Below, one piece after another: positions 1-53,986 of a DNA stretch of 64,000 bases. Within the stretch, counting starts at the first letter, position 1; the number at the start of each line of letters is the position of its first letter. Source of the stretch: Eledone cirrhosa. Lineage: Eukaryota. Where the stretch lies: NCBI GenBank assembly GCA_964016885.1, contig OZ024745.1, positions 83,886,001 through 83,950,000 on the forward strand, given 5' to 3'. A program made the position numbers and the translations under genes. The notes below the pieces were generated by a model. That model did no database searches. It saw nothing but the letters and a program-made list of their open reading frames with translations, and was not told the DNA's origin.

Positions 1-3000
1 CAATCGGGATCACTTTGACTTCATGGCAGTTCCAAATCCTTTTCACCTCCCACTGTAGGTCCTGGTATCGGTTAATTTTCTCCCTCTCCTTCTCTTGCAC
101 TCTCGTGTCGAACGGGCAGGCCACATCCACAATCAGACACGATCTTTTTTCCTTGTCCACAACCACCAGGTCAGGTCTATTGTGTTCCAGTTTTTTGTCC
201 GTCTGTATCCTAAAATCCCACAGCACCTTCACCTGATTGTTCTCCACCACCGCCTCCGGCCTATGCTCATACCATTTCTCAGAATGTGGTAAATTGTTTA
301 CTTTGCACAGGTGCCAGTGGATCACCCTGCCCATCACATCGTGTCTCCAGCCCTTATAGTGGGTCTGGGCTAGGTGTTTACACTCGGACACAATGTGAGC
401 CACAGTCTCCTCTCTCTCTCCACAGATCCTGCACAGTGGGCTAGCCTCCTCCTTGTAAATATGGTGCTTCAACCACTTCGTTTTGAGGGCCTGCTCCTGC
501 GCAGCCATTAGCATTCCTTCTGTAGCCTTTTTGAGGTCTCCTCTTCTCAACCAGTTCCATGTCTGTGGATCTCTAAATTCAGTTTTCTCAAAGAAGGTAC
601 TATGAAGGGATTTTCCCTTAAGGCTGCTCTTCCTCCTTGATGTTATTTCCTCCTTGGACATCCCCTGGCCTACTGTCCCCTCCTTCAGTACAGTTTTGAG
701 CATTGGCTCCTTACTATAGGTCACGTATTTGTATAGGTTGTTTTTCTCCATCTGAACACAGTCCTCTATGCTGATAAGACCTCTTCCACCCTCAGATCTC
801 CTTAGGTAGAGTCTATCGACATTACTCCTCTTGTGGAACATGTTGTAGATAGTCAATAGCTTCCTAGTCTTCCTATCCATTTCTTTTTGTTCAGCAACAT
901 TCCATCTCAGAATTCCCGCACTGTACCTAATAATAGACACAGCTCGGGAATTTACTGCGCTTATGGCATTTCTGCTGTTCAGATGTGACTTCAATACGCT
1001 CCTTACTCTCCGAATGTATTCAGTTCTTAACAATTCCTTCATTTTTTTGTTCTTTATGCCATCAGCCTCCAGAACGCCCAAATACTTGTATCCTTCCTCA
1101 GAGTCAATTTCCTTTATCATCTCACCTGTTGGTATCTGGATCCCGCTACTTCTGCTCAACCTACCCCTCCTCATCACAATGACTCCACATTTACCAATAC
1201 CAAATTGCATACATATATCACTGCTGAAAATACGGACAGTGTCAACAAGCACATCCAACTCCTTCTCACTTTTCCCGAAGAGCTTAAGATCGTCCACGAA
1301 GAGGAGGTGATTGATGGTAAGCTCTCCCTTTCCCAACTTGTATCCTGCTCTCACTTTTCGCAGCATAATGGTCAAGGGCATTAGGGCAATGACAAACAAC
1401 AGAGGGGACAGGCTATCTCCCTGGAAGATACCTCTCTTGATCTTCACGCTTCCCAAGGATACTCCAGTTGATGTCAACTCTGTCTCCCAGGATCCCATAC
1501 TCCTGCCCAGCAACTGTCTGATGTTATCTGCCACCCTGAAGATCTCCAGGCTTTTGGTGATCCAAGAATGAGGCACCATGTCAAATGCCTTTCTGTAGTC
1601 TATCCATCCCATGGCAAGATCAGTGTGTCTCCTCCTGAAATTCCCCATTACCATCTTATCAATAAGTAACTGGTCCTTTGTACCACGTGACTTCTTTCGG
1701 CATCCTTTCTGTTCGTCCGGTAACAAGTTGTTTGTGTGGAGGTGATGGTAGATTTCCTCAGACACAATGCTCGTCAACAGTTTCCACATTACGGACAGAC
1801 ATGTGATAGGTCTATAGTTGGTAACATCATTACCCTTGATTTGGTCTTTCATTATCAGAACTGTGGTACCTTTTGTCAACCACTCTGGCACCTCACCCGA
1901 CACCAAGCAGTCATTGAACATGGCTGTCAGCTTCGGGTGGAGGGATGTTAAATGTTTAATCCAATACCCCTGCACACCATCTGGGCCTGGTGATTTCCAG
2001 TTGGTTAGTTTTTTGGCCTGCCCCTTAAGAGTTTCAACTGTGATACTCAAATCAGTTTGTTGTTGTGCCTGCTCACCGATCTCCCTCTGTACTGTCTCAA
2101 TCCACCCTGCCTGGGCATTATGTCTGACATCCTGCTCCCATATTCCTCTCCAGAATGTTTTAGTTTGTTCCGCCCCAGGGATCAAGTCGTTGCCTCTTTC
2201 TTTCCCCTCAAGCTGTCCAAACAGCATCTTCTGGTTGTTGTCGAACATGCGGTTCTGTTTATACTGACTGACTCTGTTCTCGTATCGCCTGATTTTTGCA
2301 CTCTTTGCTACAATGCGTTGCTTCAATTCCTCTAAGATAATATTTAGCTTTTTACTCCTAGTTTTGTATTTTATTTCCAGTCTATTTTTAGTTCCTATGT
2401 TTTTTAGTGTCCCATTCAGTAGTGACTCAAGCTTTCCTATGTCATTTCTCATTTCCCCGATTTGCCCACTCAGTCGCTTCTTCCACCACGGCTCTGCTCT
2501 TTCTTGTCTGTTGTTTCCTCTCGCTTTTATACCAAGTAGTTTCCTCACCGTATTTGCTGTTGCTTTGAGGATATTGTTGCACTGGTGAAGGCTCCTCGCC
2601 TCAAGGTATGGGTTCACTTTGTTTACCTTAGCTGTTGTTTCTTTTAACTTTTTCCTGTCTACAAATCTTAGGTTCATTGGTCTCCCACTATCATTGTTCA
2701 ATTCATCTACCACTAAATTTAGGATGTCAACCGAATCTTGTCCTAGCCCGTCAGCATTCATCTCCTCAGTGGCCGTATCTCTGTTCCAGGTATTATTTAT
2801 CTCAGTATTCAGATCGTTGTCTGTTTCGGGTGGTTCCTCCGTTCTCAGGACCTCTTCACCTTCATTTCCCACTGGCTCGCTTGTCTGGCATACTACACCC
2901 GCCATCTCCAAGCCATTCTCTCTGCTCAGTTCCTCCAGTTCCAGCTCGCTTATCCACCCATTAGTTCTTATTACCCGAGCCTGCCCGGCCAATTTTTGTT

Positions 3001-3253
3001 CATCTAATTTAAATAAACCAATCTCGTTCCAGATGTTATGCATCCGTCTCCTGTAGCCCCTCTCCTTGGGGTTACTTTTCAGGTAGCATTGCATAACAGT
3101 TCTATTCAATTCTTTAGTCCAGTTGGTTCTGGCCCCTTTCCTTCTTCTTCTTCCTCCAACATCAGCAGTATTTGGTTGACAGTCAGGTTCCTGCTGCTGA
3201 GCCAGGGGGCACCTGTTGGGTGAGAGTCTGTCACATGACGTTCTAGTCTCCAT
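1..3253 (-). CDS. Dong ORF copy 1: Myb-like N-terminus, RT (LFVDD), CCHC, restriction-like endonuclease; apparently open to the window edge
   Basis: ATG at 3253 matches copy 2 ATG at 7880. The differences I checked against copy 2 are substitutions without stops. It reads KINRYQDLQWEVKR in frame. Probably absent from the ORF track because its stop lies outside the window. Confidence 0.75.
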   Translation of the reverse strand, partial: METRTSCDRLSPNRCPLAQQQEPDCQPNTADVGGRRRRKGARTNWTKELNRTVMQCYLKSNPKERGYRRRMHNIWNEIGLFKLDEQKLAGQARVIRTNGWISELELEELSRENGLEMAGVVCQTSEPVGNEGEEVLRTEEPPETDNDLNTEINNTWNRDTATEEMNADGLGQDSVDILNLVVDELNNDSGRPMNLRFVDRKKLKETTAKVNKVNPYLEARSLHQCNNILKATANTVRKLLGIKARGNNRQERAEPWWKKRLSGQIGEMRNDIGKLESLLNGTLKNIGTKNRLEIKYKTRSKKLNIILEELKQRIVAKSAKIRRYENRVSQYKQNRMFDNNQKMLFGQLEGKERGNDLIPGAEQTKTFWRGIWEQDVRHNAQAGWIETVQREIGEQAQQQTDLSITVETLKGQAKKLTNWKSPGPDGVQGYWIKHLTSLHPKLTAMFNDCLVSGEVPEWLTKGTTVLIMKDQIKGNDVTNYRPITCLSVMWKLLTSIVSEEIYHHLHTNNLLPDEQKGCRKKSRGTKDQLLIDKMVMGNFRRRHTDLAMGWIDYRKAFDMVPHSWITKSLEIFRVADNIRQLLGRSMGSWETELTSTGVSLGSVKIKRGIFQGDSLSPLLFVIALMPLTIMLRKVRAGYKLGKGELTINHLLFVDDLKLFGKSEKELDVLVDTVRIFSSDICMQFGIGKCGVIVMRRGRLSRSSGIQIPTGEMIKEIDSEEGYKYLGVLEADGIKNKKMKELLRTEYIRRVRSVLKSHLNSRNAISAVNSRAVSIIRYSAGILRWNVAEQKEMDRKTRKLLTIYNMFHKRSNVDRLYLRRSEGGRGLISIEDCVQMEKNNLYKYVTYSKEPMLKTVLKEGTVGQGMSKEEITSRRKSSLKGKSLHSTFFEKTEFRDPQTWNWLRRGDLKKATEGMLMAAQEQALKTKWLKHHIYKEEASPLCRICGEREETVAHIVSECKHLAQTHYKGWRHDVMGRVIHWHLCKVNNLPHSEKWYEHRPEAVVENNQVKVLWDFRIQTDKKLEHNRPDLVVVDKEKRSCLIVDVACPFDTRVQEKEREKINRYQDLQWEVKRIWNCHEVKVIPI

Positions 3254-4335
3254 TTCACCGTTATTCGAACTGTTTATGTTCGATATTTAAACACTCTTAT
3301 CGAGGATTGGCGAATGTATGGTTACATAGCCATCTGTGGATCCGCCATCCCACTTGGCCCTTGTGTGGCATTATCACCACGCTGTATACGAACACACATA
3401 AACAAACAAACACACAGGCAGAAAGGGCCCCAAAAATGAATAAGCATAAGTTTCATTGTAATGTAGTGTTCGAATGTCTGACTTAGTTTTTGTTTTTTAA
3501 GTTTTAGTTCCCCCCCCCCTCTTCTCTGTCCGCCCGCCTACTTCTCTCTTCATTCTTACTTTCTTTACGTTTTTGGGGTTTCTTTTTTTGTTTTTGTTTT
3601 TCTCTGTTTGTTTTTCTCGTTTTTGCTGTTGTTGCTGTGCTGCTTTGGTTTTGTTGTTTGTTTTTTCTTTTTTCTTTTGAGTCTATCTATATATATATAT
3701 TTTGATGCCTTCCTCTTTGTTAGTAGTAGGAATTCTATAATGTGGAAGTAGCAGCCAGCAGGGAGAAGTGGGAGACTGGCGGCGGTAGCGATACTGAGAC
3801 AGTGGTGGTGGTGATGTCGATACCGTGGAAGCGGTGGCGGTGATGTGACCGTATTACTGTAGTGATGGTGCTGTAGCGGTGGCAGCAGTGAAGGAGTGAA
3901 GGGGTGATGGCGGCGGTGATGGGATAGTGGTGGTAATGATGGCCGTAGTGAGCGGTGGCGGTGAAGGTGAAAATGCCGTTATCTGGCTGTTGTGTTTAGT
4001 GTACACAGATGATGGGGTGGGTGGTGTATCTAGTTTCTGGTGTTGGTGAGTTTGGCTGTCCTATATAGTGTAGGCAGAGGAGAGGAGGGGGGGTTCTTCT
4101 TCCATTTATAGCCATTTTCTTTTTTGGATATACTGTGTACAATACAAAGTTGAATATTTGAATATTTGAGCCTTATAACAATACATTTGGGGTCCGAATT
4201 TTTTGGGGCTCAAGCCGGGTGCTTTACGTATGATTTGTACTAAGAGTTGTTATTTCACAAATGATTTAAATATGTTAAAAATTCAAAAGTCACGGGAGCG
4301 ATTTCAACCTCCGTCACCTCGTGCGTCTTCTTCCC
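1..4335 (-). mobile_element. R4/Dong-clade non-LTR retrotransposon, copy 1 (3' end runs off window)
   Basis: Colinear with copy 2 at offset 4627-4628; 5' end abuts the (TTA)n tract at 4336. Confidence 0.9.
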
Positions 4336-4405
<70 letters not shown>

Positions 4406-4414
4406 GTTGTTATT
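4336..4414. repeat. (TTA)n/(TAA)n microsatellite between Dong copies 1 and 2
   Basis: Directly visible; ends in TTG variants. Confidence 0.98.
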
Positions 4415-7400
4415 CCTTGAATTCCAGTCATTGATGTTGGTTAACTGGAAAGTCCGTTGGAATGAATATCAAGCCACTACCTGCAGCCTCAGATATTCAG
4501 GACGTATCGGAGGGTTCTTGCTGTTCCAAGCAAGCATGCTTTTTGAAGCGTTCCAAAAAGCGTGACGGGGCCGATTTTCTTTAACCATCCCTGGAAACTT
4601 TTGGAGATAGTCCCCAGTGCACCTATGACAATCGGGATCACTTTGACTTCATGGCAGTTCCAAATCCTTTTCACCTCCCACTTTAGGTCCGGTATCGGTT
4701 AATTTTCTCCCTCTCCTTCTCTTGCACTCTCGTGTCGAAAGGGCAGGCCACATCCACAATCAGACACGATCTTTTTTCTTTGTCCACAACCACCAGGTCA
4801 GGTCTATTGTGTTCCAGTTTTTTGTCCGTCTGTATCCTAAAATCCCACAGCACCTTCACCTGATTGTTCTCCATCACCGCCTCTGGCCTATGCTCATACC
4901 ATTTCTCAGAGTGTGGTAAATTGTTTACTTTGCACAGGTGCCAGTGGATCACCCTGCCCATCACATCGTGTCTCCAGCCCTTATAGTGGGTCTGGGCTAG
5001 GTGTTTACACTCGGACACAATGTGAGCCACAGTCTCCTCTCTCTTTCCACAGATCCTGCACAGTGGGCTAGCCTCCTCCTTGTAAATATGGTGCTTCAAC
5101 CACTTCGTTTTGAGGGCCTGCTCCTGCGCAGCCATTAGCATTCCTTCTGTAGCCTTTTTGAGGTCTCCTCTTCTCAACCAGTTCCATGTCTGTGGATCTC
5201 TAAATTCAGTTTTCTCAAAGAAGGTACTATGAAGGGATTTTCCCTTAAGGCTGCTCTTCCTCCTTGATGTTATTTCCTCCTTGGACATCCCCTGGCCTAC
5301 TGTCCCCTCCTTCAGTACAGTTCTGAGCATTGGCTCCTTACTATAGGTCACGTATTTGTATAGGTTGTTTTTCTCCATCTGAACACAGTCCTCTATGCTG
5401 ATAAGACCTCTTCCACCCTCAGAACTCCTTCGGTAGAGTCTATCGACATCACTCCTCTTGTGGAACATGTTGTAGATAGTCAATAGCTTCCTAGTCTTCC
5501 TATCCATTTCTTTTTGTTCAGCAACATTCCATCTCAGAATTCCCGCACTGTACCTAATAATAGACACAGCTCGGGAATTTACTGCGCTTATGGCATTTCT
5601 GCTGTTCAGATGTGACTTCAATACGCTCCTTACTCTCCGAATGTATTCAGTTCTTAACAATTCCTTCATTTTTTTGTCCTTTATGCCATGAGCCTCCAGA
5701 ACGCCCAAATACTTGTATCCTTCCTCAGAGTCAATTTCCTTTATCATCTCACCTGTTGGTATCCGGATCCCGTTACTTCTGCTCAACCTACCCCTCTTCA
5801 TCACAATGACTCCACATTTACTAATACCAAATTGCATACATATATCACTGCTGAAAATACGGACAGTGTCAACAAGCACATCCAACTCCTTCTCACTTTT
5901 CTCGAAGAGCTTAAGATCGTCCATGAAGAGGAGGTGATTGATGGTAAGCCCTCCCTTTCCCAACTTGTATCCTGCTCTCACTTTTCGCAGCATAATGGTC
6001 AAGGGCATCAGGGCAAGGACAAACAACAGAGGGGACAGGCTATCTCCCTGGAAGATACCTCTCTTGATCTTCACGCTTCCCAAGGATACTCCAGTTGATG
6101 TAAACTCTGTCTCCCAGGACCCCATACTCCTGCCCAGCAACTGTCTGATGTTATCTGCCACCCTGAAGATCTCCAGGCTTTTGGTGATCCAAGAATGAGG
6201 CACCATGTCAAATGCCTTTCTGTAGTCTATCCATCCCATGGCAAGATCAGTGTGTCTCCTCCTGCAATTCCCCATTACCATCTTATCAATAAGTAACTGG
6301 TCCTTTGTACCACGTGACTTCTTTCGGCATCCTTTCTGTTCGTCCGGTAACAAGTTGTTTGTGTGGAGGTGATGGTAGATTTCCTCAGACACAATGCTCG
6401 TCAACAGTTTCCACATTACGGACAGACATGTGATAGGTCTATAGTTGGTAACATCATTACCCTTGATTCGGTCTTTCATTATCAGAACTGTGGTACCTTT
6501 TGTCAACCACTCTGGCACCTCACCCGACACCAAGCAGTCATTGAACATGGCCGTCAGCTTCGGGTGGAGGGATGTTAAATTTTTAATCCAATACCCCTGC
6601 ACACCATCTGGGCCTGGTGATTTCCAGTTGGTTAGTTTTTTGGCCTGCCCCTTAAGAGTTTCAACTGTGATACTCAAATCAGTTTGTTGGTGTGCCTGCT
6701 CACCGATCTCCCTCTGTACTGTCTCAATCCACCCTGCCTGGACATTATGTCTAACATCCTGCTCCCATATTCCTCTCCAGAATGTTTTAGTTTGCTCCGC
6801 CCCAGGGATCAAGTCGTTGCCTCTTTCTTTCCCCTCAAGCTGTCCAAACAGCATCTTCTGGTTGTTGTCGAACATGCGGTTCTGTTTATACTGACTGACT
6901 CTGTTCTCGTATCGCCTGATTTTTGCACTCTTTGCTACAATGCGTTGCTTCAATTCCTCTATGATAATATTTAGCTTTTTACTCCTAGTTTTGTATTTTA
7001 TTTCCAGTCTATTTTTAGTGCCTATGTTTTTTAGTGTCCCATTCAGTAGTGACTCAAGCTTTCCTATGTCATTTCTCATTTCCCCGATTTGCCCACTCAG
7101 TCGCTTCTTCCACCACGGCTCTGCTCTTTCTTGTCTGTTGTTTCCTCTCGCTTTTATACCAAGTAGTTTCCTCACCGTATTTGCTGTTGCTTTGAGGATA
7201 TTGTTGCACTGGTGAAGGCTCCTCGCCTCAAGGTATGGGATCACTTTGTTTACCTTAGCTGTTGTTTCTTTTAACTTTTTCCTGTCTACAAATCTTAGGT
7301 TCATAGGTCTCCCACTATCATTGTTCAATTCATCTACCACTAAATTTAGGATGTCAACCGAATCTTGTCCTAGCCCGTCAGCATTCATCTCCTCAGTGGC

Positions 7401-8962
7401 CGTATCTCTGTTCCAGGTATTATTTATCTCAGTATTCAGATCGTTGTCTATTTCGGGTGGTTCCTCCGTTCTCAGGACCTCTTCACCTTCATTTCCCACT
7501 GGCTCGCTTGTCTGGCATACTACACCCGCCATCTCCAAGCCATTCTCTCTGCTCAGTTCCTCCAGTTCCAGCTCGCTTATCCACCCATTAGTTCTTATTA
7601 CCCGAGCCTGCCCGGCCAATTTTTGTTCATCTAATTTAAATAAACCAATCTCGTTCCAGATGTTATGCATCCGTCTCCTGTAGCCCCTCTCCTTGGGGTT
7701 ACTTTTCAGGTAGCATTGCATAACAGTTCTATTCAATTCTTTAGTCCAGTTGGTTCTGGCCCCTTCCCTTCTTCTTCTTCCTCCAGCATCAGCAGTATTT
7801 GGTTGACAGTCAGGTTCCTGCTGCTGAGCCAGGGGGCACCTGTTGGGTGAGAGTCTGTCACATGACGTTCTAGTCTCCATTTCACCGTTATTCGAACTGT
7901 TTATGTTCGATATTTAAACACTCTTATCGAGGATTGGCGAATGTATGGTTACATAGCCATCTGTGGATCCGCCATCCCACTTGGCCCTTGTGTGGCATTA
8001 TCACCACGCTGTATACGAACACACATAAACAAACAAACACACAGGCAGAAAGGGCCCCAAAAATGAATAAGCATAAGTTTCATTGTAATGTAGTGTTCGA
8101 ATGTCTGACTTAGTTTTTGTTTTTTAAGTTTTAGTTCCCCCCCCCCCTCTTCTCTGTCCGCCCGCCTGCTTCTCTCTTCATTCTTATTTTCTTTACGTTT
8201 TTGGGGTTTCTTTTTTTGTTTTTGTTTTTCTCTGTTTGTTTTTCTCGTTTTTGCTGTTGTTGCTGTGCTGCTTTGGTTTTGTTGTTTGTTTTTTCTTTTT
8301 TCTTTTGAGTCTATCTATATATATATTTTGATGCCTTCCTCTTTGTTAGTAGTAGGAATTCTATAATGTGGAAGTAGCAGCCATCAGGGAGAAGTGGGAG
8401 ACTGGCGGCGGTAGCGATACTGAGACAGTGGTGGTGGTGATGTCGATACCGTGGAAGCGGTGGCGGTGATGTGACCGTATTACTGTAGTGATGGTGCTGT
8501 AGCGGTGGCAGCAGTGAAGGAGTGAAGGGGTGATGGCGGCGGTGATGGGATAGTGGTGGTAATGATGGCCGTAGTGAGCGGTGGCGGTGAAGGTGAAAAT
8601 GCCGTTATCTGGCTGTTGTGTTTAGTGTACACAGATGATGGGGTGGGTGGTGTATCTAGTTTCTGGTGTTGGTGAGTTTGGCTGTCCTATATAGTGTAGG
8701 CAGAGGAGAGGAGGGGGGGGTTCTTCTTCCATTTATAGCCATTTTCTTTTTTGGATATACTGTGTACAATACAAAGTTGAATATTTGAATATTTGAACCT
8801 TATAACAATATATTTGGGGTCCGAATTTTTTGGGGCTCAAGCCGGGTGCTTTACGTAGCATTTGTACTAAGAGTTGTTATTTCACAAATGATTTAAATAT
8901 GTTAAAAATTCAAAACTCACGGGAGCGATTTCAACCTCCGTCACCTCGTGCGTCTTCTTCCC
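4415..8962 (-). mobile_element. R4/Dong-clade non-LTR retrotransposon, copy 2 (full length, ~4.55 kb)
   Basis: Single ORF with WKSPGPDG, YRPITCL, DYRKAFD, GIFQGDSLSP, FMDD, CRICGKREETVAHIVSEC, RHD and PDLVVVD motifs; (TAA)n on both sides, the known Dong target. Confidence 0.93.
4489..7880 (-). pseudogene. Dong RT-endonuclease ORF copy 2, frameshifted in the endonuclease C-terminus
   Basis: ORF 4683-7880 plus out-of-frame tail 4489-4674; 1-bp deletion near 4690 (ccggtatc vs cctggtatc in copy 1 and in the 19.3 kb fragment). Confidence 0.88.
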
Positions 8963-9005
<43 letters not shown>

Positions 9006-9017
9006 GTTGTTGTTATT
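8963..9017. repeat. (TTA)n microsatellite between Dong copies 2 and 3
   Basis: Directly visible. Confidence 0.98.
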
Positions 9018-12000
9018 CCTTGAATTCTAGTCATTGATGTTGGTTAACTGGAAAGTCCGTTGGAATGAATATCAAGCCACTACCTGCAGCCTCAGATATT
9101 CAGGACGTATCGGAGGGTTCTTGCTGTTCCAAGCAAGCATGCTTTTTGAAGCGTTCCAAAAAGCGTGACGGGGCCGATTTTCTTTAACCATCCCTGGAAA
9201 CTTTTGGAGATAGTCCCCAGTGCGCCTATGACAATCGGGATCACTTTGACTTCATGGCAGTTCCAAATCCTTTTCACCTCCCACTTTAGGTCCGGTATCG
9301 GTTAATTTTCTCCCTCTCCTTCTCTTGCACTCTCGTGTCGAAAGGGCAGGCCACATCCACAATCAGACACGATCTTTTTTCTTTGTCCACAACCACCAGG
9401 TCAGGTCTATTGTGTTCCAGTTTTTTGTCCGTCTGTATCCTAAAATCCCACAGCACCTTCACCTGATTGTTCTCCATCACCGCCTCTGGCCTATGCTCAT
9501 ACCATTTCTCAGAGTGTGGTAAATTGTTTACTTTGCACAGGTGCCAGTGGATCACCCTGCCCATCACATCGTGTCTCCAGCCCTTATAGTGGGTCTGGGC
9601 TAGGTGTTTACACTCGGACACAATGTGAGCCACAGTCTCCTCTCTCTTTCCACAGATCCTGCACAGTGGGCTAGCCTCCTCCTTGTAAATATGGTGCTTC
9701 AACCACTTCGTTTTGAGGGCCTGCTCCTGCGCAGCCATTAGCATTCCTTCTGTAGCCTTTTTGAGGTCTCCTCTTCTCAACCAGTTCCATGTCTGTGGAT
9801 CTCTAAATTCAGTTTTCTCAAAGAAGGTACTATGAAGGGATTTTCCCTTAAGGCTGCTCTTCCTCCTTGATGTTATTTCCTCCTTGGACATCCCCTGGCC
9901 TACTGTCCCCTCCTTCAGTACAGTTCTGAGCATTGGCTCCTTACTATAGGTCACGTATTTGTATAGGTTGTTTTTCTCCATCTGAACACAGTCCTCTATG
10001 CTGATAAGACCTCTTCCACCCTCAGAACTCCTTCGGTAGAGTCTATCGACATCACTCCTCTTGTGGAACATGTTGTAGATAGTCAATAGCTTCCTAGTCT
10101 TCCTATCCATTTCTTTTTGTTCAGCAACATTCCATCTCAGAATTCCCGCACTGTACCTAATAATAGACACAGCTCGGGAATTTACTGCGCTTATGGCATT
10201 TCTGCTGTTCAGATGTGACTTCAATACGCTCCTTACTCTCCGAATGTATTCAGTTCTTAACAATTCCTTCATTTTTTTGTCCTTTATGCCATGAGCCTCC
10301 AGAACGCCCAAATACTTGTATCCTTCCTCAGAGTCAATTTCCTTTATCATCTCACCTGTTGGTATCCGGATCCCGTTACTTCTGCTCAACCTACCCCTCT
10401 TCATCACAATGACTCCACATTTACTAATACCAAATTGCATACATATATCACTGCTGAAAATACGGACAGTGTCAACAAGCACATCCAACTCCTTCTCACT
10501 TTTCCCGAAGAGCTTAAGATCGTCCATGAAGAGGAGGTGATTGATGGTAAGCCCTCCCTTTCCCAACTTGTATCCTGCTCTCACTTTTCGCAGCATAATG
10601 GTCAAGGGCATCAGGGCAAGGACAAACAACAGAGGGGACAGGCTATCTCCCTGGAAGATACCTCTCTTGATCTTCACGCTTCCCAAGGATACTCCAGTTG
10701 ATGTAAACTCTGTCTCCCAGGACCCCATACTCCTGCCCAGCAACTGTCTGATGTTATCTGCCACCCTGAAGATCTCCAGGCTTTTGGTGATCCAAGAATG
10801 AGGCACCATGTCAAATGCCTTTCTGTAGTCTATCCATCCCATGGCAAGATCAGTGTGTCTCCTCCTGCAATTCCCCATTACCATCTTATCAATAAGTAAC
10901 TGGTCCTTTGTACCACGTGACTTCTTTCGGCATCCTTTCTGTTCGTCCGGTAACAAGTTGTTTGTGTGGAGGTGATGGTAGATTTCCTCAGACACAATGC
11001 TCGTCAACAGTTTCCACATTACGGACAGACATGTGATAGGTCTATAGTTGGTAACATCATTACCCTTGATTCGGTCTTTCATTATCAGAACTGTGGTACC
11101 TTTTGTCAACCACTCTGGCACCTCACCCGACACCAAGCAGTCATTGAACATGGCCGTCAGCTTCGGGTGGAGGGATGTTAAATTTTTAATCCAATACCCC
11201 TGCACACCATCTGGGCCTGGTGATTTCCAGTTGGTTAGTTTTTTGGCCTGCCCCTTAAGAGTTTCAACTGTGATACTCAAATCAGTTTGTTGGTGTGCCT
11301 GCTCACCGATCTCCCTCTGTACTGTCTCAATCCACCCTGCCTGGACATTATGTCTAACATCCTGCTCCCATATTCCTCTCCAGAATGTTTTAGTTTGCTC
11401 CGCCCCAGGGATCAAGTCGTTGCCTCTTTCTTTCCCCTCAAGCTGTCCAAACAGCATCTTCTGGTTGTTGTCGATTTTTGCCTCTTTGCACTCTTTGCAC
11501 TTTTTGCACTTTTTGCACTCGTATCGCCTGATTTTTGCACTCTTTGCTACAATGCGTTGCTTCAGTTCCTCTATGATAATATTTAGCTTTTTCCTCCTAG
11601 TTTTATATTTTATTTCCAGTCTATTTTTAGTGCCTATGTTTTTTAGTGTCCCATTCAGTAGTGACTCAAGCTTTCCTATGTCATTTCTCATTTCCCCGAT
11701 TTGCCCACTCAGTCGCTTCTTCCACCACGGCTCTGCTCTTTCTTGTCTGTTGTTTCCTCTCGCTTTTATACCAAGTAGTTTCCTCACCGTATTTGCTGTT
11801 GCTTTGAGGATATTGTTGCACTGGTGAAGGCTCCTCGCCTCAAGGTATGGGATGACTTTGTTTACCTTAGCTGTTGTTTCTTTTAACTTTTTCCTGTCTA
11901 CAAATCTTAGGTTCATAGGTCTCCCACTATCATTGTTCAATTCATCTACCACTAAATTTAGGATGTCAACCGAATCTTGTCCTAGCCCGTCAGCATTCAT

Positions 12001-12954
12001 CTCCTCAGTGGCCGTATCTCTGTTCCAGGTATTATTTATCTCAGTATTCAGATCATTGTCTGCTTCGGGTTGTTCCTCCGTTCTCAGGACCTCTTCACCT
12101 TCATTTCCCACTGGCTCGCTTGTCTGGCATACTACACCCGCCATCTCCAAGCCATTCTCTCTGCTCAGTTCCTCCAGTTCCAGCTCGCTTATCCACCCAT
12201 TAGTTCTTATTACCCGAGCCTGCCCGGCCAATTTTTGTTCATCTAATTTAAATAGACCAATCTCGTTCCAGATGTTATGCATCCGTCTCCTTTAGCCCCT
12301 CTCCTTGGGGTTACTTTTCAGGTAACATTGCATAACAGTTCTATTCAATTCTTTCGTCCAGTTGGTTCTGGCCCCTTTCCTTCTTCTCCTTCCTCCAACA
12401 TCAGCAGTATTTGGTTGACAGTCAGGTTCCTGCTGCTGAGCCAGGGAGCACCTGTTGGGTGAGAGTCTGTCACATGACGTTCTAGTCTCCATTTCACCGT
12501 TATTCGAACTGTTTATGTTCGATATTTAAACACTCTTATCGAGGATTGGCGAATGTATGGTTACATAGCCATCTGTGGATTCGCCGTTCCACTTGGCCCT
12601 TGTGTGGCATTATCACCACGCTGTATACGAACACACATAAACAAACAAACACACAGGCAGAAAGGGCCCCAAAAATGAATAAGCATAAGTTTCATTGTAA
12701 TGTAGTGTTCGAATGTCTGACTTAGTTTTTGTTTTTTTAGTTTTAGTTTTTCCCCCCTCTTCTCTGTCCGTCCGCCTGCTTCTCTCTTCATTCTTATTTT
12801 CTTTACGTTTTTTGTTTTTGTTTTTCTCTGTTTGTTTTTCTCGTTTTTTGCTGTTGTTGCTGTGCTGCTTTGGTTTTGTTGTTTGTTTTTTCTTTTTTCT
12901 TTTGAGTCTATCTATATATTTATTTTGATGCCTTCCACTTTTTTAGTAGTAGGA

Positions 12955-12957
<3 letters not shown>
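9018..12957 (-). mobile_element. R4/Dong-clade element copy 3, ~600 bp shorter at the 5' end
   Basis: Colinear with copy 2; similarity stops at gtagtaggaatt, which merges into the (ATT)n tract. Confidence 0.92.
9092..12492 (-). pseudogene. Dong ORF copy 3 with nonsense codon, in-frame repeat scar and the copy-2 frameshift
   Basis: TAC>TAA at 12292-12294 splits ORFs 12292-12492 and 9286-12282; ECKKCKKCKECKEAKI replacement; frameshift near 9293. Confidence 0.88.

Positions 12958-12993
<36 letters not shown>
12955..12993. repeat. (ATT)n microsatellite between Dong copy 3 and the Tx1-like element
   Basis: Directly visible. Confidence 0.98.
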
Positions 12994-13207
12994 GAATGCC
13001 ATGGTTGACGGAGGCTCGGCTCTGTAAGGTATAGTAATTTTTAACCGTTAAAACAATTGTAAATTGTTTAAAACTTGAACCAAATTGTTGATAAAGACAC
13101 CCTCCTCCTCGTGAGAGGGGTCTTTCTGTCCGTTATTTGGCCCTTCGGGGTTAAATAACCAGTTATTGGGGTTTTGTACCCAAAATTTCATTTTAAACAA
13201 AAAAAAC

Positions 13208-15304
13208 ATGGCTACGAAAAAGAAATTTCATACGTCACTCCCACTCATTCCGTCTTCTTCTTCCTCAATCATCACTACAGCAGAGAGAAGATTGTCTCTC
13301 TCCCTCCCTTCTTTAAATGTGTCTCTCTCCCTCCCTTCTCTTTCGCAAGCGACGAAAGAAAAGAAAAGTCTCGTGCAAAGCGTGCAAGGTTTCTCCACGA
13401 CGACGACGACAGCGACGAAACAGGTGTGCGGGAAATACGAAAACCCAGTTCATTCGTCTGACGTCAGGAATAATAGCAGTAGCAGCCGTAATAACAACAG
13501 CAACAGTGACAATGAAAACAACAGTAGCAGCCGCAACAGCATCACCAGCAGCATAAACAACAACAGCATTAGCAGCAGCAACACCAACAACAACCACAGC
13601 AACAGCGGCGGAGGCAGTAGTCGTAGTACCTGCTGCAACAACAAAAGTACCAGCAGCTCTGACGACAACAACAACAGCAGAGAAAAACCAATCTCATTTG
13701 CAGGTATTGCGAAAAACTTGGAAACAATCCTCATAACAAATGAGGAATTAGAGGAAGCGAAGAAGATGGTGACAAAGAACGGACACCGAGCAATCTGCAA
13801 GGCAGCGAAAAACTTTTTCGAAACCCAAGAGCACTGTACGGTCACGTACCGTACAGTAAGTACAAAATCCCGTAGGGTGGAAAGAGCCACAGAGGCCCAA
13901 ATACAAAAAGCCTTGGGGTCTGTGTGGCAGAGGAAAACGCACATCACCCGAGGCAAAAAATACGCGACCGTAGACGTACTTTTTGCCACACCCCAGGAGG
14001 CAAAGGCCCAATCAGTAGTGACCCTAAGGAGCGAGGAAATGGTGTTGGTGCCCTCCTACTGCGGGCAAAAAATTGTGAGGGTCAAACTGACCCACGTCCC
14101 CCCCGGAATGACCCCTTCTTGGCTGGCCGCGTCTGTCCTCGTCGGAATCGAGGACAAAACAACTGTACTGCAAGTACAGAAAAAAGTAAGAGAAGATTGG
14201 GTCGGCTCCTCCATTGAGATGCTAATCCAAACCAACCAGGAGTGCATCGAAGCTATCCCGGATGTGATAGACTTCGATAACGGCACTCAACTGCCCATAA
14301 GTGTTGAGGGCAAACGCCCGAAATGCTTTCGCTGTGGATCGAAGACTCACCTCAGGGCCTTCTGCAACGAGAAGACCCTGAGAAAGGAGAAAACCCCCCT
14401 CCTTCCGAATCCGGCTCCACGGCTACCAGCAACAGGACAAGCGGCAACCAGGAACGATAGGTCCGTGGCACCCATACCCACTCCACGGAAATCAAAGACA
14501 GCAGCAGCAGTGGAAATATTAACAACAACAACAGCAATACCAAATGCAGCTGCAACAGAGACTCCAGTGCAAACATCACCAACAACAACAAGTGAAAGAG
14601 TGGAGCTGGTACCCCTCCCCGACCTTACAGAATCAGACATGGAGTGTGAGGTGGGAGAGGGATGGCAAAAGGTCGCAAGAAGGCACAAACGCAGAAGCAG
14701 CGCATCGTCGCCTTTGAAAAGGGAGGAAAGAAATGAGAAAAGGGTAAAGTCTACTGCAAAGAGACCCACAGCAGCAACACCACCAACACCATCACCACCC
14801 ACACCAGCACCACCATCACCACCGGCGACAACCCCACCGCCAACAACACCTTCAACACCACCACCACAAGCACCAACATCGCAAACACAACAACAAAACA
14901 CACACACCCAGCAACAACGACAAGAAAATAGCAGAACCACACCCCAACCCCAGAAAAACAAATGCACGGCAATAAACACACACAACAAGAAACTAATGAC
15001 TTACATAATTGAACACACAGACATTTCACAACAGGACTACATAATACCAGCACCAATCAAAACGCCAACTAACATAAGACTGCTAAAAATAGCACAGAAA
15101 CAATACACAAACATTAAAACGAAATTCCCCAACGCAGTTGGTGATTTCAGGGACCTAGGAGGAACCATTAATCGAAGAGTATATTCAGACATTCTCTTAG
15201 AAGAGCCGACGACCAGCCGAAGGGACGATTCAACGGTCCCTTCACCAGACGATCAAGTGAAAAGGGATGTAAAAACCATCCCTCCCCTACCAAAAGTACG
15301 GTAA
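13208..15304 (+). CDS. LINE ORF1 nucleic-acid-binding protein with one CCHC knuckle and low-complexity S/N and P/T tracts
   Basis: CFRCGSKTHLRAFC knuckle and GWQKVARR motif; first ATG at 13208 (the ORF track starts at TTG 13166). Confidence 0.85.
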   Translation: MATKKKFHTSLPLIPSSSSSIITTAERRLSLSLPSLNVSLSLPSLSQATKEKKSLVQSVQGFSTTTTTATKQVCGKYENPVHSSDVRNNSSSSRNNNSNSDNENNSSSRNSITSSINNNSISSSNTNNNHSNSGGGSSRSTCCNNKSTSSSDDNNNSREKPISFAGIAKNLETILITNEELEEAKKMVTKNGHRAICKAAKNFFETQEHCTVTYRTVSTKSRRVERATEAQIQKALGSVWQRKTHITRGKKYATVDVLFATPQEAKAQSVVTLRSEEMVLVPSYCGQKIVRVKLTHVPPGMTPSWLAASVLVGIEDKTTVLQVQKKVREDWVGSSIEMLIQTNQECIEAIPDVIDFDNGTQLPISVEGKRPKCFRCGSKTHLRAFCNEKTLRKEKTPLLPNPAPRLPATGQAATRNDRSVAPIPTPRKSKTAAAVEILTTTTAIPNAAATETPVQTSPTTTSERVELVPLPDLTESDMECEVGEGWQKVARRHKRRSSASSPLKREERNEKRVKSTAKRPTAATPPTPSPPTPAPPSPPATTPPPTTPSTPPPQAPTSQTQQQNTHTQQQRQENSRTTPQPQKNKCTAINTHNKKLMTYIIEHTDISQQDYIIPAPIKTPTNIRLLKIAQKQYTNIKTKFPNAVGDFRDLGGTINRRVYSDILLEEPTTSRRDDSTVPSPDDQVKRDVKTIPPLPKVR

Positions 15305-15339
15305 GTGGTCTTTCCCATCTTTTCCACTCTATTTTAAAC

Positions 15340-18300
15340 ATGACCTCACTCAGAATAGGCAGCATAAATGCGCGTGGCTTGGGGTCGTCATGGAAGCAGG
15401 GTCACCTGCTCAACGACCTCAGGTCACTAAACATAGATGTAGTGGCCATCAGCGAGACCAGAATCTCCGAAGCACGGGCCTTCGCACCGATCTTCGGCGG
15501 CTACGATGTGTACGCATCTCCCAGCCGTCCTGGATCGGGTGGAGGAGTTGCTGTGCTTTTTCGGAGAGGTTTGGATCTCGCCATACGGGCCATCTTCCTG
15601 GACCCAGAGGGTAAGCTGGTGGTGCTGGACGTGACCAGCGGAGACGGGCAAGCTTTCAGGCTAGTGGCCGTCTATGCCCCGACAGGAGCAGGGCGGCCTG
15701 ATTTCTTCCGGCGTCTGGAGACCTTTCTTGGAACGTCCCGCTCTTTAGTGTTAGTGGGCGACTGGAACGGGATCTTAGATGCACGCTGGGACTGTGTGGG
15801 ATTAGCGGATAGGGGTGGAGGGTGCAAGAGCCTCACCAACCTGCTCAGGCGTTTTGAACTGTCTGACAGGTACCGATTGGATTTCCCGAATGTGCCAATG
15901 TGGACTTGGACAAACCGCATAGGGTCATCCAGATCATATCTAGATAGAGTATTTTGTAGGGAAATAGATAGGTCTAGCATAGGCTGTCCACAATTCAAGA
16001 TAGTCAGCTACACGGACCACAAATTCGTGACCTGTGTGCTTGACTTAGATAGGCTTCATAGACGAGGACCCGGCTACTGGAAGCTAAACGCGTCCTTACC
16101 AGCGCGCAAGGCCTACAGAGACCGGATTAGCGAACTAGTTAAGCGGGCGTTGACGGGGGCCATCGTCAACAACAAGTGGTGGTTTGCTCTGAAAAGAGCG
16201 ATTAGAATAGAATCGATTAGGTTTAGTAAGGCTTTAGCAATAGAGAAAAATAGAGCAGAGGGAGAACTAGTTAGAAAATTAGACGAGGCGCTTAGCAAAG
16301 GCATTGCGACCGACGTGCTTGCGGCGAAATTGGCCCTTGACCAATTCTTCAATGCAAAGCACGAAGGCTGCGTTGTCAGAGCTAGGGTGCGTGCTCTCAG
16401 ACACGAGGGGACGAAAGCCGTTCAATGGGCCCGAGTGGCGGAGGCGCGTCGTGGCAACAAAGCCACGATCCGGTCTTTGGTGGACCACGACGGGCGCATG
16501 CTACTCGATCCCGGGCAAATGTGTGAAGCTTTTCAGCGACACTTCGCTCAGCTGTTCGGGGGCAGCGGGGGGCCGGGTAGAGGGATGGACTTTAGTGTCT
16601 ACCTCGACGGACTGCCGCGGCTCTCGGCCACTGAGGCGAAGTGTTGCGAAAAGCCGATAACAGCCGCTGAAGTACGGGAGGCAATGACTGGCTGCACAAG
16701 GGGTAAATCGCCTGGTTTGGATGGTCTGCCCTATGAACTTTACGTACAGATGCCAGACTTGTTCGGAGGCCTCTTGGCGGACGTCTACTGCAACTGGCAA
16801 CAGAACGGGAGAATTCCCAGTTCTGTGAGCCGAGGAGCGGTGGCACTGCTGAGAAAGGATCCGAACAAGGGGGATAACATAGACAATTTCCGGCCCATAA
16901 CTCTGCTAAACACAGAGTTTAAGATTTTGGCCAAGGTGCTAGCAAAGAGGTTGGCGCTTGTCGTTGGTGGTCTGGTGGGAGAGGCGCAGACATGCGCCAT
17001 TCCCGACAGATCCATCCACGACAACCTCCACCTCATGCGATACATCGTAGAGAGGGTAGCTAGGGAACCTGGCACGGGTGGGTCCTTGATCAATTTAGAT
17101 CAGTCGAAAGCTTTCGATAGGGTCGACCATCGTTACCTAGCGGCAGTCCTGAGGGCGGCTGGCTTTGGGCCCGTCTTCAGAGGCTGGATCGCTGCCATGC
17201 ACAGCGACATCTGCTCTGTGGTGAGAGTGAACGGTCACCTGTCGGAACCGTTCAACATCATGCGCTCGGTCCGCCAAGGATGTCCCCTCTCGTCCCTCTT
17301 GTACGTATTGACTCTCGAGCCATTACTGCACAAACTGGAGACGTTGAGGGGAGTCCCGCGCGAACTAGGATGCGGAAGATCCGTGTCAGCATATGCGGAC
17401 GATGTCACCGTAGTGGTGTCGAACGCCAAACACATCGAGGCGATCGGCACTACACTAAGAGAATACGAAGCGGTGACAGGAGCAATGATCAACCAGGAAA
17501 AGTCAGTGGGCCTGCAGCTCGGCACCTGGAGAGGCAGGTCCATGCCGTCCAACAGCGTCGTCGGGCGCTGGACGGACGGACCGGTTAAATTGCTAGGGGT
17601 CTGGTTCGGTCCGGACCTCCAGACGGACAAAAACTGGGACGAGGTGACGAGCAGGGTGGCTTCTCTCACCCAGAAATGGGCGGAGAGGAAGCTATCCCTG
17701 AAAGGTCGAGCGGAGGTGGCTAACGCGTACATCGCGTCTGTCATCTGCTACCGCCTAACCGTCGTACCTTGTCCTAAGCCTCGCCTGACTGCGCTGGAGC
17801 GTTTGCTCTTTCGCTTTTTGTGGAAGGGACGTGCTCCGATGGTCAGGCGGTGCATCTGTTGTCAACACCCGCTACGTGGAGGGCTGGGCATGCCGTGGCT
17901 GATGATGCGCAGGCACGCGCTCAGGCTACGACATCTCCACCTCTTCCTCGACGGTGATCAGGTGTGGTCGCCGTTTGCTAGACGCGTTTTTCCCCAGCTC
18001 GTTTCCTTGACGGAGCTGCAGTCCTGGGTCAAGCGAAGACCGAGAGGGAGCGCCTGGAGACTGGAATGTCTTCAGGCGCTCACAGCCCTCGACCAATCGG
18101 GCAATGTGATCGGTGGAAACTCCACCTCGGCGTTCTATAGAGGATTAGTGGAGGGGAAGAGCGACGACGTACTTGGGGAAACTCTAGGCGTCGACGAAAA
18201 TCAACTAGCCAATCTCTTCGGGAGAACTTTCGGGCCAGGGCCTATGGACAACTTCCAGAAATCTCTGGCCTGGCAGTGCTACCGAGGAGCCTTGCCAGTT

Positions 18301-18759
18301 CGGGATAAACTCTACAGGCATGGAGGTGCCGTCAGCCGGGCATGTCCGAGATGCGCGCAGGGCGACGAAACCGTCCTGCACGCACTCGTCCAGTGTCCGA
18401 AAATTGCTGACTTGTGGGTTTATGTCGAACACCTGCTGTCGCGTTTAGGACGGATCCAGCTATCATCTGGGTCTATCGTGAGGATTGCCCCGCCCTCCTC
18501 CTTTAGCCGGGAAGGGCAGGCAGTTTTTATCTGTCTGGTGGCCATGGCGAAAGAGATAGTATGGTGGACACGTTTGAAAGGGCTGAAGACGAGCACTTAC
18601 CTCTTCGGTGATGCTCTGATTGACTTTTTCAAATTTCATTTGAAAAGGAAAATCAGAGTAGAGAAGGAAGTGCTCTCTTCCCAGCATTTTGTTGAAAGAT
18701 GGGTGAGAGAAGCAAGAATGGCCCGAGTGAATGGGCCGACTCTGAGTATATATCTGTAA
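15340..18759 (+). CDS. LINE ORF2: APE endonuclease, RT, C-terminal zinc finger
   Basis: SINARGL, ISET, VYAP, GDWN, YLDR, TDH (APE); KSPGLDG, FRPITLLN, DQSKAFDRV, RQGCPLS, YADD (RT); CPRC...ETVLHALVQC; 1139 aa uninterrupted. Confidence 0.95.
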   Translation: MTSLRIGSINARGLGSSWKQGHLLNDLRSLNIDVVAISETRISEARAFAPIFGGYDVYASPSRPGSGGGVAVLFRRGLDLAIRAIFLDPEGKLVVLDVTSGDGQAFRLVAVYAPTGAGRPDFFRRLETFLGTSRSLVLVGDWNGILDARWDCVGLADRGGGCKSLTNLLRRFELSDRYRLDFPNVPMWTWTNRIGSSRSYLDRVFCREIDRSSIGCPQFKIVSYTDHKFVTCVLDLDRLHRRGPGYWKLNASLPARKAYRDRISELVKRALTGAIVNNKWWFALKRAIRIESIRFSKALAIEKNRAEGELVRKLDEALSKGIATDVLAAKLALDQFFNAKHEGCVVRARVRALRHEGTKAVQWARVAEARRGNKATIRSLVDHDGRMLLDPGQMCEAFQRHFAQLFGGSGGPGRGMDFSVYLDGLPRLSATEAKCCEKPITAAEVREAMTGCTRGKSPGLDGLPYELYVQMPDLFGGLLADVYCNWQQNGRIPSSVSRGAVALLRKDPNKGDNIDNFRPITLLNTEFKILAKVLAKRLALVVGGLVGEAQTCAIPDRSIHDNLHLMRYIVERVAREPGTGGSLINLDQSKAFDRVDHRYLAAVLRAAGFGPVFRGWIAAMHSDICSVVRVNGHLSEPFNIMRSVRQGCPLSSLLYVLTLEPLLHKLETLRGVPRELGCGRSVSAYADDVTVVVSNAKHIEAIGTTLREYEAVTGAMINQEKSVGLQLGTWRGRSMPSNSVVGRWTDGPVKLLGVWFGPDLQTDKNWDEVTSRVASLTQKWAERKLSLKGRAEVANAYIASVICYRLTVVPCPKPRLTALERLLFRFLWKGRAPMVRRCICCQHPLRGGLGMPWLMMRRHALRLRHLHLFLDGDQVWSPFARRVFPQLVSLTELQSWVKRRPRGSAWRLECLQALTALDQSGNVIGGNSTSAFYRGLVEGKSDDVLGETLGVDENQLANLFGRTFGPGPMDNFQKSLAWQCYRGALPVRDKLYRHGGAVSRACPRCAQGDETVLHALVQCPKIADLWVYVEHLLSRLGRIQLSSGSIVRIAPPSSFSREGQAVFICLVAMAKEIVWWTRLKGLKTSTYLFGDALIDFFKFHLKRKIRVEKEVLSSQHFVERWVREARMARVNGPTLSIYL

Positions 18760-19009
18760 ACTAAAGGTGGAAAACTGGGAGAGGGCACTTGCCTTGGTGG
18801 TCAGGGTCATTGTGGCTTTTTACTGGGCTTTCTCCACAAATGTCCCTCCGAAGTCTGCCCCCTATTGGGGAATTTTTCATTGTTATTTTTTGTTACATCC
18901 TCTGTTTTTGTTTTTTACACGCAGAAATGCCCATTTGTACCGTCCTGCATTGTCCTGCACTGTCCTTAATGTCTACTTTATGTAAACCCTTGTGGTTAAT
19001 AAAGAAATC

Positions 19010-19072: not shown

Positions 19073-19073
<1 letters not shown>

Positions 19074-19419
19074 TTTGAGTCTCAGTCATTGATGATATTT
19101 AACTGGAAAGTTTGTTGAAATGAATATCAAGCCACTACCTGCAGCCTCAGATATTCAGGACGTATCGGAGGGTTCTTGCTGTTCCCAGCAAGCATACCTT
19201 TTGAAGTGTTCCAAAAAGCGGGGCTGGACTAATTTTCTTTAACCATCCTTGGAAACTCTTTGAGATATTACCTAGTGCGTCTATGACAATCGGGACCACT
19301 TTGACTTCATGGCAGTTCCAAATCCTTTTTACCTCCCACTTTAAGTCCTGGTATCGGTTAATTTTCTCCCTCTCCTTCTCTTGCACTCTCGTGTCGAATG
19401 GGCAGGCTACATCTACAAT
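19073..19419 (-). mobile_element. Heavily 5'-truncated Dong copy (endonuclease tail and 3' UTR)
   Basis: QEKEREKINRYQDLKWEVKRIW...LRYVLNI; same 3' UTR as copies 2 and 3 but more diverged. Confidence 0.9.
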
Positions 19420-38400: not shown

Positions 38401-38600
38401 CCCATACGTTCGAATGGCCGTGTGGTTGACTGCTCGTAGATTTAGATTTGATTCGGCTGGGCTTTTTTTGAGATAACTGACTGGCCAAATACTCAGCGAC
38501 GCGCCAGTATCGACAAGGAAAAATTTTTTTGACCGCAGGTCGTATACGAAAAGATGGCGGTTCGGTCGGTTTTCCCAGAGTTCACTAGCCGTTCCTAGTG
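35485..38600 (-). pseudogene. pol: Gypsy pol: protease (FLVDTGA, frameshifted from the rest), RT, RNase H, integrase
   Basis: [46 protein letters not shown]; ORF 35485-38370 with protease N-half out of frame. Confidence 0.9.
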
Positions 38601-39380
38601 GCTCTGCTTTGCGTTTCCCGATCTCTTGTAATCACAGGGCGTGCGACAACGTTGCGCCCTACTGCCGAAGTTAGCATGATACCAACACAACGAAGAATTA
38701 TTGTTGCCTGCGTTGTAGTGCTGGCGATGAATAGAGGACGGCGGCGAACGATACCTCAAACGTTGAGAAGGCTCTCTGTGATGTACCGACAAATCTTCTA
38801 CCTTTTTGGTGAGAGCTTCAATCAACTCCAACAGTTTGCCGTCGGCCACAGAAGAACTGCGTGGAGGGACGCAAGCTGAAGCCACATAAGGATTATGCTG
38901 ATTGCTGTTCGAGTCCACCCAAGTATCTTATCCGCGGACGCGGCAAGTTGCTCTAATGAATCCTTCTCTAAACTATTGACCAATATCCTTTGCGCACTTG
39001 GTGGTAGACGTGAGAAAAAAAAGTTGCTTTATGAAGGGGGTGTCAATCCCCTGGGAGTCGCTCAACTACCGCAAATGTCGCAAATAGGAGCTCGGCTTCC
39101 TGTCACCCATTTGAGCATCGTCCAACAACTCCCGAAAACGGCTCTCTACCGACTTGGTATTTCTGCGAAGAATTTCTTTTTTTAATGAGCCGTAGGTAAC
39201 GTCGGCGTCTAAATCCGTCACAACGTCCTTCACCGAGAATGCCAAGGAAACAGGTAGGCCATTGATCAGGACCTTCAGCTTAAGCTGTTCCTTTGTCTTT
39301 GTCAATTCAAAGAAAGATTCCAGCTGCGCAAACCACAACTTGATGTCGCCTGCGAAGGACGGCAAATGATGTTGACTCAT
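38595..39380 (-). pseudogene. gag: Gypsy gag with one internal TAG and two frameshifts
   Basis: LPSF..LWFAQLESFF, MGDRKPS, stop at 39066, SRLP in a shifted frame, CHCC knuckle. Confidence 0.85.
38613..38619 (-). promoter_or_regulatory. Putative -1 ribosomal frameshift site G_GGA_AAC at the gag/pol junction
   Basis: X_XXY_YYZ heptamer in gag frame shortly before the gag stop; the protease frame is -1 relative to gag. Confidence 0.7.
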
Positions 39381-48305: not shown

Positions 48306-49039
48306 TTATAGTTATAGTAATAACCAAAGGGTGCTTAGAAATACATTGTTTTATTAGCTAACAGTGTTTCATCCATACACCATAGCAAGGAATCTTCAGA
48401 GCCTATAAACATGAGTATATCAGCAGTTGCATGCTCCATCGAGCTGCGTCACCAGAACAAGGTTAAATGACCAGCAGGGGGGGGGGGGGGGGCAGCGCTA
48501 TAGGGAAAAAGACAGAAAACATGATGCACATAATGTCATAAAATGACTTAAAGATTTAAAAATTTAAAATTACACCAAACATTTATCACTTAAATGGTGC
48601 AATAGATGATAAAGAGGTTGGGAGAGGGTAGCAAGGGATGAGTGAGGGTATTACTCAGCCTGATCAGAAACAATAAGAAAATAATAAAAATAATAATAAT
48701 AATAAAGTACAAAAATACAGGGATAAGAAGAGAGATAAATATAAAAATACAAAACAATAAAGGAACATTTGTGGTGTAATTATAAATTTTTAAATGTTTA
48801 AGACATTTGATGACATTATGTGCATCATGTATTCTGTCTTTTTCCATATAGCGCTGGCCTCGGGACCCCCTGCTGGTCATTTAACCTTGTTCTGGTGACG
48901 CAGCTTGATGGAGCATGCAACTACTGATATACTCTTGTTTATAGGCTCTGAAGATTCCTGCCATGGTGTATGGATGACACACTGTTAGCTAATAAAACAA
49001 TGTATTTCTAAGCACTCTTTGGTTATTCCTATAACTATA

Positions 49040-53034: not shown

Positions 53035-53068
<34 letters not shown>

Positions 53069-53069
<1 letters not shown>

Positions 53070-53830: not shown

Positions 53831-53832
53831 TT

Positions 53833-53871
<39 letters not shown>

Positions 53872-53955: not shown

Positions 53956-53986
<31 letters not shown>

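Follow-up and report, generated by a model that had tools for sequence, protein, structure and literature searches.

Dong elements, which are of the RLE type, carry a leader akin to the 5′ region of Tx1, an element of the APE type. This likeness, originally pointed out between one Dong copy and the Tx1 element lying next to it, is confirmed here; the interpretation placed on it in an earlier note, that this Dong family had captured a Tx1-type promoter and leader, is partly supported. On balance, we favour a reading in which the first ~220 nt of the Dong leader are Tx1-homologous, were likely captured long ago, likely serve as an internal promoter that includes a short intron-like stretch, and at a later time probably moved between unrelated Dong lineages.

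The locus and its elements

The window, by which we mean the whole 64-kb stretch of DNA analysed, comes from a 3.0-Gb genome. Its first 19.4 kb are made up of RLE elements, an APE element and a Dong 3′ fragment, separated by (TAA)n or (ATT)n. Three RLE-type elements lie in tandem on the minus strand (window 1–12957), with a period of 4628 nt and 98% identity. The features of this block are:

1–3253, minus strand: Dong ORF of copy 1, with RT, CCHC, RHD and PD-D-type endonuclease; continues past the window edge
3254–3734, minus strand: remainder of the 1082-nt Dong 5′ UTR of copy 1, an A-rich tract and then a TG-rich tract with a TACAG end at 3382
3735–4112, minus strand: C/A-rich low-complexity spacer of Dong copy 1, without a stable ORF; the part up to about +407 (~3929) is 81% common to a second Dong lineage
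4113–4335, minus strand: Tx1-type 5′ module of Dong copy 1, from +1 through a vestigial ATG at 4115–4113
4222–4293, minus strand: putative intron-like segment of Dong copy 1 (sequence signature), 72 nt, GT...TAAAG
4336–4414, no strand: (TAA)n target, separating Dong copies 2 and 1
4415–8962, minus strand: Dong copy 2, full length, with the module at 8962–8740, the ORF ATG at 7880 and a frameshift close to the C terminus
9018–12957, minus strand: Dong copy 3, 5′-truncated ~600 nt into the leader
12955–12993, no strand: (ATT)n separating the head-to-head Dong copy 3 and Tx1
12994–13207, plus strand: Tx1 (family A) 5′ UTR, with an intron-like segment at 13024–13096 (73 nt) and a hairpin-rich 3′ half
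13208–15304, plus strand: Tx1 ORF1, with low-complexity ends and a CCHC knuckle, without a Pfam match
15343–18759, plus strand: Tx1 ORF2, with APE, RT and zf-RVT
19073–19419, minus strand: short 3′ fragment of an older Dong, past the (ATT)n tail of Tx1

The truncation of copy 3 accounts for its lack of the module. Copies 2 and 3 have the same C-terminal frameshift, which is absent from copy 1.

The single Dong ORF contains RT (matched as RVT_1 in Pfam), followed towards the C terminus by motifs that are visible in the sequences of Dong families A and C and that we take to be the CCHC, RHD and PD-(D/E)xK endonuclease motifs. A Myb/SANT-like domain at the N terminus gave no match in a Pfam search. 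The neighbouring element (12994–19009, plus strand; Tx1 family A) is a full two-ORF APE element, with a zinc knuckle in ORF1 and Pfam matches to APE, RT and zf-RVT in ORF2. TAA-type repeats stand before 30 of 30 Dong 5′ ends, and (ATT)n before all 30 Tx1 copies. The labels Dong and Tx1 are drawn from this architecture and target rather than from placement among named references, the 120 listed homologues being unnamed or ‘hypothetical’. Insertion into (TAA)n has been reported for the Dong/R4 clade (PMC7998251; PMC3812793), and in Octopus vulgaris Dong-R4 and L1-Tx1 are both given as recently active (PMC13282606).

Other repeats are present further along the window. These include a Gypsy-type pol ORF with RT, RNase H and integrase (35485–38631, minus strand) and two Penelope-like ORFs on the minus strand, one with weak RT and GIY-YIG matches (59781–61832) and one without a Pfam match (30160–32106). 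Numerous short inverted-repeat elements and (TA)n arrays occur between 20700 and 63500, e.g. at 48306–49040 and 52092–57935.

Probable homology between Dong leaders and Tx1 5′ ends

The matching blocks named in the earlier note were all found, in the same order, between the minus strand of Dong and the plus strand of Tx1. In Dong copy 1 (minus strand, +1 = 4335) TGACGGAGG lies at +20, AATTTTTAAC at +53, TAAAGCACCC at +110 and the ATG at +221 (4115); in Tx1 (+1 = 12994) the equivalents are at +13, +43 and +99, with the ATG at +215 (13208). The spacing from motif to ATG, 201 nt in Dong and 202 nt in Tx1, was as claimed, and Dong copy 2, read from 8962, agrees with the blocks of copy 1. The different repeats said to precede the leader also held among cluster members, with (TAA)n in 53 of 53 for Dong and (ATT)n in 47 of 47 for Tx1.

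When the Dong leader was compared with the adjoining Tx1 in shuffle tests, significance was modest to borderline for this pair alone; the profile test at the level of families, given below, is clear. Of 500 dinucleotide shuffles, 12 reached the pair's local score of 33.5, and several unrelated AT-rich windows within the 64 kb surpassed it. None of 1000 shuffles reached the global score, for which the end points had been chosen. Removal of the ATG block left a z of 3.0–3.4 (reached by 0–3 of 200–300 shuffles).

The leader is not peculiar to this locus. A leader search gave 1570 candidates, of which 40 were scored and 30 fetched (two being the window's own), and every one of the 30 read into the Dong ORF: the leader is joined to this ORF genome-wide and forms the true 5′ end of the family. 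All 30 also start at the identical base, directly after TAA-type repeats. The leader–Dong junction was present at 28 of 28 other loci, which rules out a Tx1 fragment inserted at this locus alone. The refuting condition set in the earlier note for its own reading was therefore tried and did not refute it. The module is the fixed 5′ end in three Dong families (A, B and C) and starts at least eight families of Tx1 5′ ends. It is older than DongA, the family of the window. DongB is an older subfamily with a diverged leader, in which 23 of 25 fetched loci run on towards the ORF. An early pattern search for a third family had returned four matches, all of them variants of the two window families.

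Taken as a family, the Dong leaders are very probably homologous to Tx1 5′ UTRs, judging by a Dong-only profile, family searches and a leader tree. The Dong-only profile, built from four Dong leader rows and run over 648 kb, had its best non-Dong match at locus L084 (E 4.6e-6); next in rank came seven Tx1 UTRs of family A, with E between 1.4 and 9.8. The L084 sequence belongs to a different Tx1 family, TxD. Each of 12 TxD loci scored with the profile, at E values from 5e-8 to 2e-3, and in 10 of the 12 the sequence runs on into a Tx1 ORF1. Two further Tx1 5′ ends, TxB and TxC, were collected for comparison. Between DongB and TxB a colinear alignment extends for ~180 nt (z 8.5 for the local score, which none of 200 shuffles reached); TxC is an exception, with little similarity to any Dong. 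A search for (ATT)n followed by CGCTCCYGTRAGT, the Dong core in Tx1 orientation, found 281 matches, counted with overlaps, whereas the reversed control had 0. Same-strand Tx1 ORF1 or ORF2 sequence lies downstream in 15 of the 16 loci fetched from this search, and these loci define Tx1 families F, G and H; the Dong core TCGCTCCCGTAAGT stands letter for letter in further Tx1 families, TxF among them.

A Tx1-only profile (20 rows, searched in 976 kb) matched 30 DongB leaders (best E 8e-5) and 35 DongA/C leaders (best E 0.019), a result with some circularity, since Dong-derived queries had supplied four of the families in the profile. At E ≤ 1 the profile missed both Dong leaders of the window, and reversed DNA gave zero matches. 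The closest Dong–Tx1 pairs are ~60–70% alike over aligned columns, where shuffles reach 62%, and in the segment ahead of the donor-like site most Dong–Tx1 pairs are not significant.

Convergence, in which the same host layout of core promoter and short first intron evolved separately and AT-richness gave the remaining similarity, seems unlikely. It would suit the borderline score of the pair first noticed and the fact that the strongest common word is a splice-donor consensus. The same layout is described in Drosophila Penelope (PMC2377424), and short L1 5′ UTRs are reported to retain motifs across divergent families within one host (PMC5381506). However, the similarity goes on past the AG: in the region after the intron-like segment each Dong family is similar to TxD (z 3.9–5.2, 0 of 500 shuffles each), which argues that descent plays a part as well. 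The colinearity over ~180 nt also argues against convergence, as do the 8 nt common to both ahead of the donor (TCGCTCCC) and the fact that the similarity stops at an ATG left unused in Dong. In addition, 44 control loci of other endonuclease-bearing LINEs (179 kb) gave zero module matches; these came from an APE-domain search and demonstrably cover the 5′ end in one CR1-like family, coverage being uncertain in many others.

A GGGCC...GGCCC hairpin-like word is a mark of Tx1 families B, D, E and F and is degenerate in Dong. The 3′ half of the window's Tx1 UTR (13085–13215) folds better than its shuffles (z −3.0), and Dong 5′ ends showed no stable fold relative to shuffles (z −0.3 to +0.15).

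Probable direction of transfer, and exchange between Dong lineages

Tx1 was probably the donor of the module and Dong the recipient. In the leader tree (26 rows) Dong grouped with TxB/D/E/F against TxA/C/G/H (support 98/97), and it is nested inside Tx1 diversity only under a midpoint root. This grouping does not support the neighbouring Tx1, a member of family A, as donor; its 5′ end is a distant cousin of the Dong leader. No Tx1 family among those collected was close enough to be a near donor, and no Tx1–Dong chimera intermediates were found among 128 Tx1 modules, seven same-strand matches being due to a SINE inside the reference. The ATG that ends the module is the start of ORF1 in Tx1 and opens no stable frame in Dong. 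In all 30 Dong copies the frame that follows it is 16–39 aa long and varies with the length of a poly-C run, the ATG itself is altered in one DongC copy, and 11–12 ATGs stand ahead of the true ORF start at +1083. Together, the use of the ATG in Tx1 only, the tree, and the fact that no ribozyme was detected in Dong (see below) favour transfer from Tx1 to Dong. The diversity of the module is also far deeper in Tx1.

It is rather improbable that the homologous module travelled the other way, from Dong to Tx1, or that both received it from elsewhere, for instance from a host gene, a SINE or a lost element. In favour of this, the tree has no independent root, no near donor was found, and Tx1 families also shuffle 5′ modules against ORFs: in L101 an ORF2 with 95% identity to that of the window is combined with a divergent UTR and a divergent ORF1 (50% aa), and in L231 and L234 an F-type UTR is joined to an A-like ORF1. 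A SINE-mediated precedent is offered by the RTE-like pieces described in R4-1_ADi and Ingi-3_AC (PMC5786205). Against this, the length of the module and its ATG suit ORF1 in Tx1 and nothing in Dong, the depth of module diversity lies on the Tx1 side, and the module matched no RNA family in Rfam at gathering score.

The sequence downstream of the ATG in Dong had been thought to resemble a decayed ORF1. The P/T/S-rich and K/Q-rich translations on which this was based do exist; kinship with Tx1 ORF1 is not supported, the resemblance being compositional only. At the protein level, translations of the Dong leader were not similar to Tx1 ORF1 (lowest tblastn E 0.39), and a search for ORF1 homologues gave none at E ≤ 0.001. 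At the DNA level, the starts of Tx1 ORF1 were used in 18 comparisons; in 16 of them 2 or more of 100 local shuffles did equally well, and the remaining two were low-complexity matches.

For capture from Tx1, the Dong reverse transcriptase may have switched template onto a Tx1 RNA; alternatively, a 5′-truncated Dong could have landed immediately downstream of a Tx1 5′ end. Residence in the same microsatellite arrays would raise the odds of such joins. Such a chimera could then be transcribed wherever it had landed in (TAA)n, bypassing the read-through-plus-ribozyme route of Bombyx Dong.

The leader moves between Dong lineages, judging by a comparison of leaders with ORFs. DongC is a third RLE family, whose protein is 40.6% identical to the window's Dong over 662 aa, and the two ORFs have no match at the DNA level. 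Relatives in other samples are up to 68% identical to the window Dong protein among the matches listed, and path lengths in the protein tree are 1.84 for DongC versus 0.61 for these relatives. The DongA and DongC leaders are 81% identical over 426 columns (the first ~407 nt), with patchy similarity as far as ~+770. In DongC the leader is kept from position 247 or earlier in 9 of 20 fetched loci, the others being 5′-shorter or interrupted. DongA and DongB ORFs are 88–92% identical, while their modules align only locally, over ~110 nt at 76%, and in the leader tree the DongB leader is farther from DongA than the DongC leader is. Leader and ORF histories thus disagree in a pattern that vertical descent cannot yield, and at least one transfer between RLE lineages must have taken place. 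An AU test (37 rows, with 34 of the 120 homologues used) did not reject a clade of Dong A and C (p 0.158). One 1710-aa Dong-like protein (P0001) was excluded from the tree because a long internal part of it is exactly duplicated, which is probably an artefact of assembly.

A TAA-associated SINE-like repeat occurs in the window at ~45402. The same repeat is inserted in one DongC leader (L128), at an internal (TAA)n at ~+405, where the high A–C identity stops.

Putative promoter and splice signals, and their meaning

The module resembles an internal promoter with an intron-like segment of 66–73 nt, and the balance of the sequence signatures inclines us to regard it as such a promoter. Its best-kept word, at +31 to +46, is a splice-donor consensus. 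An AG follows 66–73 nt past this word in DongA, DongB and TxA, B, D and E, is less regular in DongC, and is absent in TxC. GTRAG is kept in 18 of 19 DongA, 22 of 24 TxA and 12 of 12 TxD sequences and in 0 of 3 for TxC; the donor of Dong copy 1 reads GTGACT, versus GTRAGT in 18 of 19 copies of its family. Upstream of the donor-like word, a GACG block is present in most families. In contigs of unknown kind, no joint across the intron-like segment was seen on the Dong side.

A TG/pyrimidine tract (window 3440–3382, minus strand) ends in TACAG, is similar to a 3′ splice site, and lies near the point where DongA/B identity jumps to 88%. A long intron running from the donor to this TACAG at 3382 was considered and rejected, there being no joined genomic copy and four ATGs still to follow.

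The captured module could instead act mainly on the RNA, with U1 binding or splicing protecting or exporting an A-rich transcript and transcription coming from the flanks. This is consistent with GTRAG being the best-kept word, with an AG 66–73 nt on in most families, and with the Penelope intron, which is described as working post-transcriptionally (PMC2377424). We nevertheless regard such a role as very improbable. No spliced genomic copy was found at either junction tested. The acceptor is an AAG without a pyrimidine tract and is lost in some DongC copies, and TxC has no donor. A single exact start base in 30 of 30 full-length copies also needs a defined start or cleavage.

The RLE elements R2, R4 and Bombyx Dong are thought to rely on host read-through and a 5′ ribozyme, and L1/Tx1 elements carry their own promoter. 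Ascaris R4 also has a 5′ HDV-like ribozyme; such a ribozyme is not known to be universal in the R4/Dong clade. Bombyx Dong is reported to self-cleave at its 5′ junction by means of an HDV-like ribozyme (PMC3774820). In the Dong leaders studied here, no HDV-like ribozyme was matched in Rfam, and an HDV-like descriptor gave 0 matches in four leaders versus 50 of 50 positives found, all of these positives being machine-made. Preferring capture of an internal promoter from Tx1, we tentatively put forward a further possibility, at somewhat less than even odds: that a portable APE-LINE cassette of promoter and mini-intron replaced the ancestral ribozyme/read-through expression of an RLE LINE and afterwards spread through another Dong lineage, separate since ancient times.

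Recruitment of 5′ UTRs is established in mammalian L1 (PMC5381506). There, as here, a LINE swaps its 5′ regulatory region and keeps its ORFs, and leader and ORF histories conflict; the new UTRs described in that work, however, are non-homologous and the change is within L1 (PMC5381506), whereas the present module is recognisably common across the RLE/APE divide and to Dong lineages 41% identical in protein. An R4 element with a 45-nt RTE-like piece is also known (PMC5786205). R4-1_ADi and Ingi-3_AC are similar to our case in that an R4-clade RLE element has 5′ UTR sequence similar to an APE clade, but the RTE-like pieces reported are 45–68 nt long and internal (PMC5786205); here it is the entire end of the element, ~220 nt reaching from +1 as far as the start codon of ORF1, that is fixed in three families.

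With Bombyx Dong and the R4 clade the elements share a single RT-RLE ORF and the (TAA)n target (PMC3774820; PMC7998251; PMC3812793). They differ in that a self-cleaving HDV-like ribozyme opens Bombyx Dong (PMC3774820), whereas the elements studied here have a Tx1-like 5′ end in which no such ribozyme was detected. In Drosophila virilis, Penelope likewise has an internal promoter region with a GACG-type downstream element, given as RGACGTGY, and a 75-bp intron 46 bp past the start (PMC2377424). Penelope, however, is of an unrelated element class, and its splicing and promoter activity are proven (PMC2377424), whereas those of the Dong module are read from sequence signatures. In the open-licence literature that was searched, and in passages of PMC9115989, PMC13282606 and PMC8967140, no description of Dong with a complete 5′ end of Tx1 type was found.

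A Tx1-type front fixed on three Dong families would show that expression strategy can be swapped across the deepest split among non-LTR elements. In the alignment of about eleven diverged 5′ ends, candidates can be picked out for the splice and core-promoter signals of a cephalopod-like genome. If the cassette did replace the ribozyme route and spread in this way, co-residence would turn (TAA)n arrays into places where regulatory modules are traded among non-LTR clades, and this could account for the expansion of Dong in these genomes.
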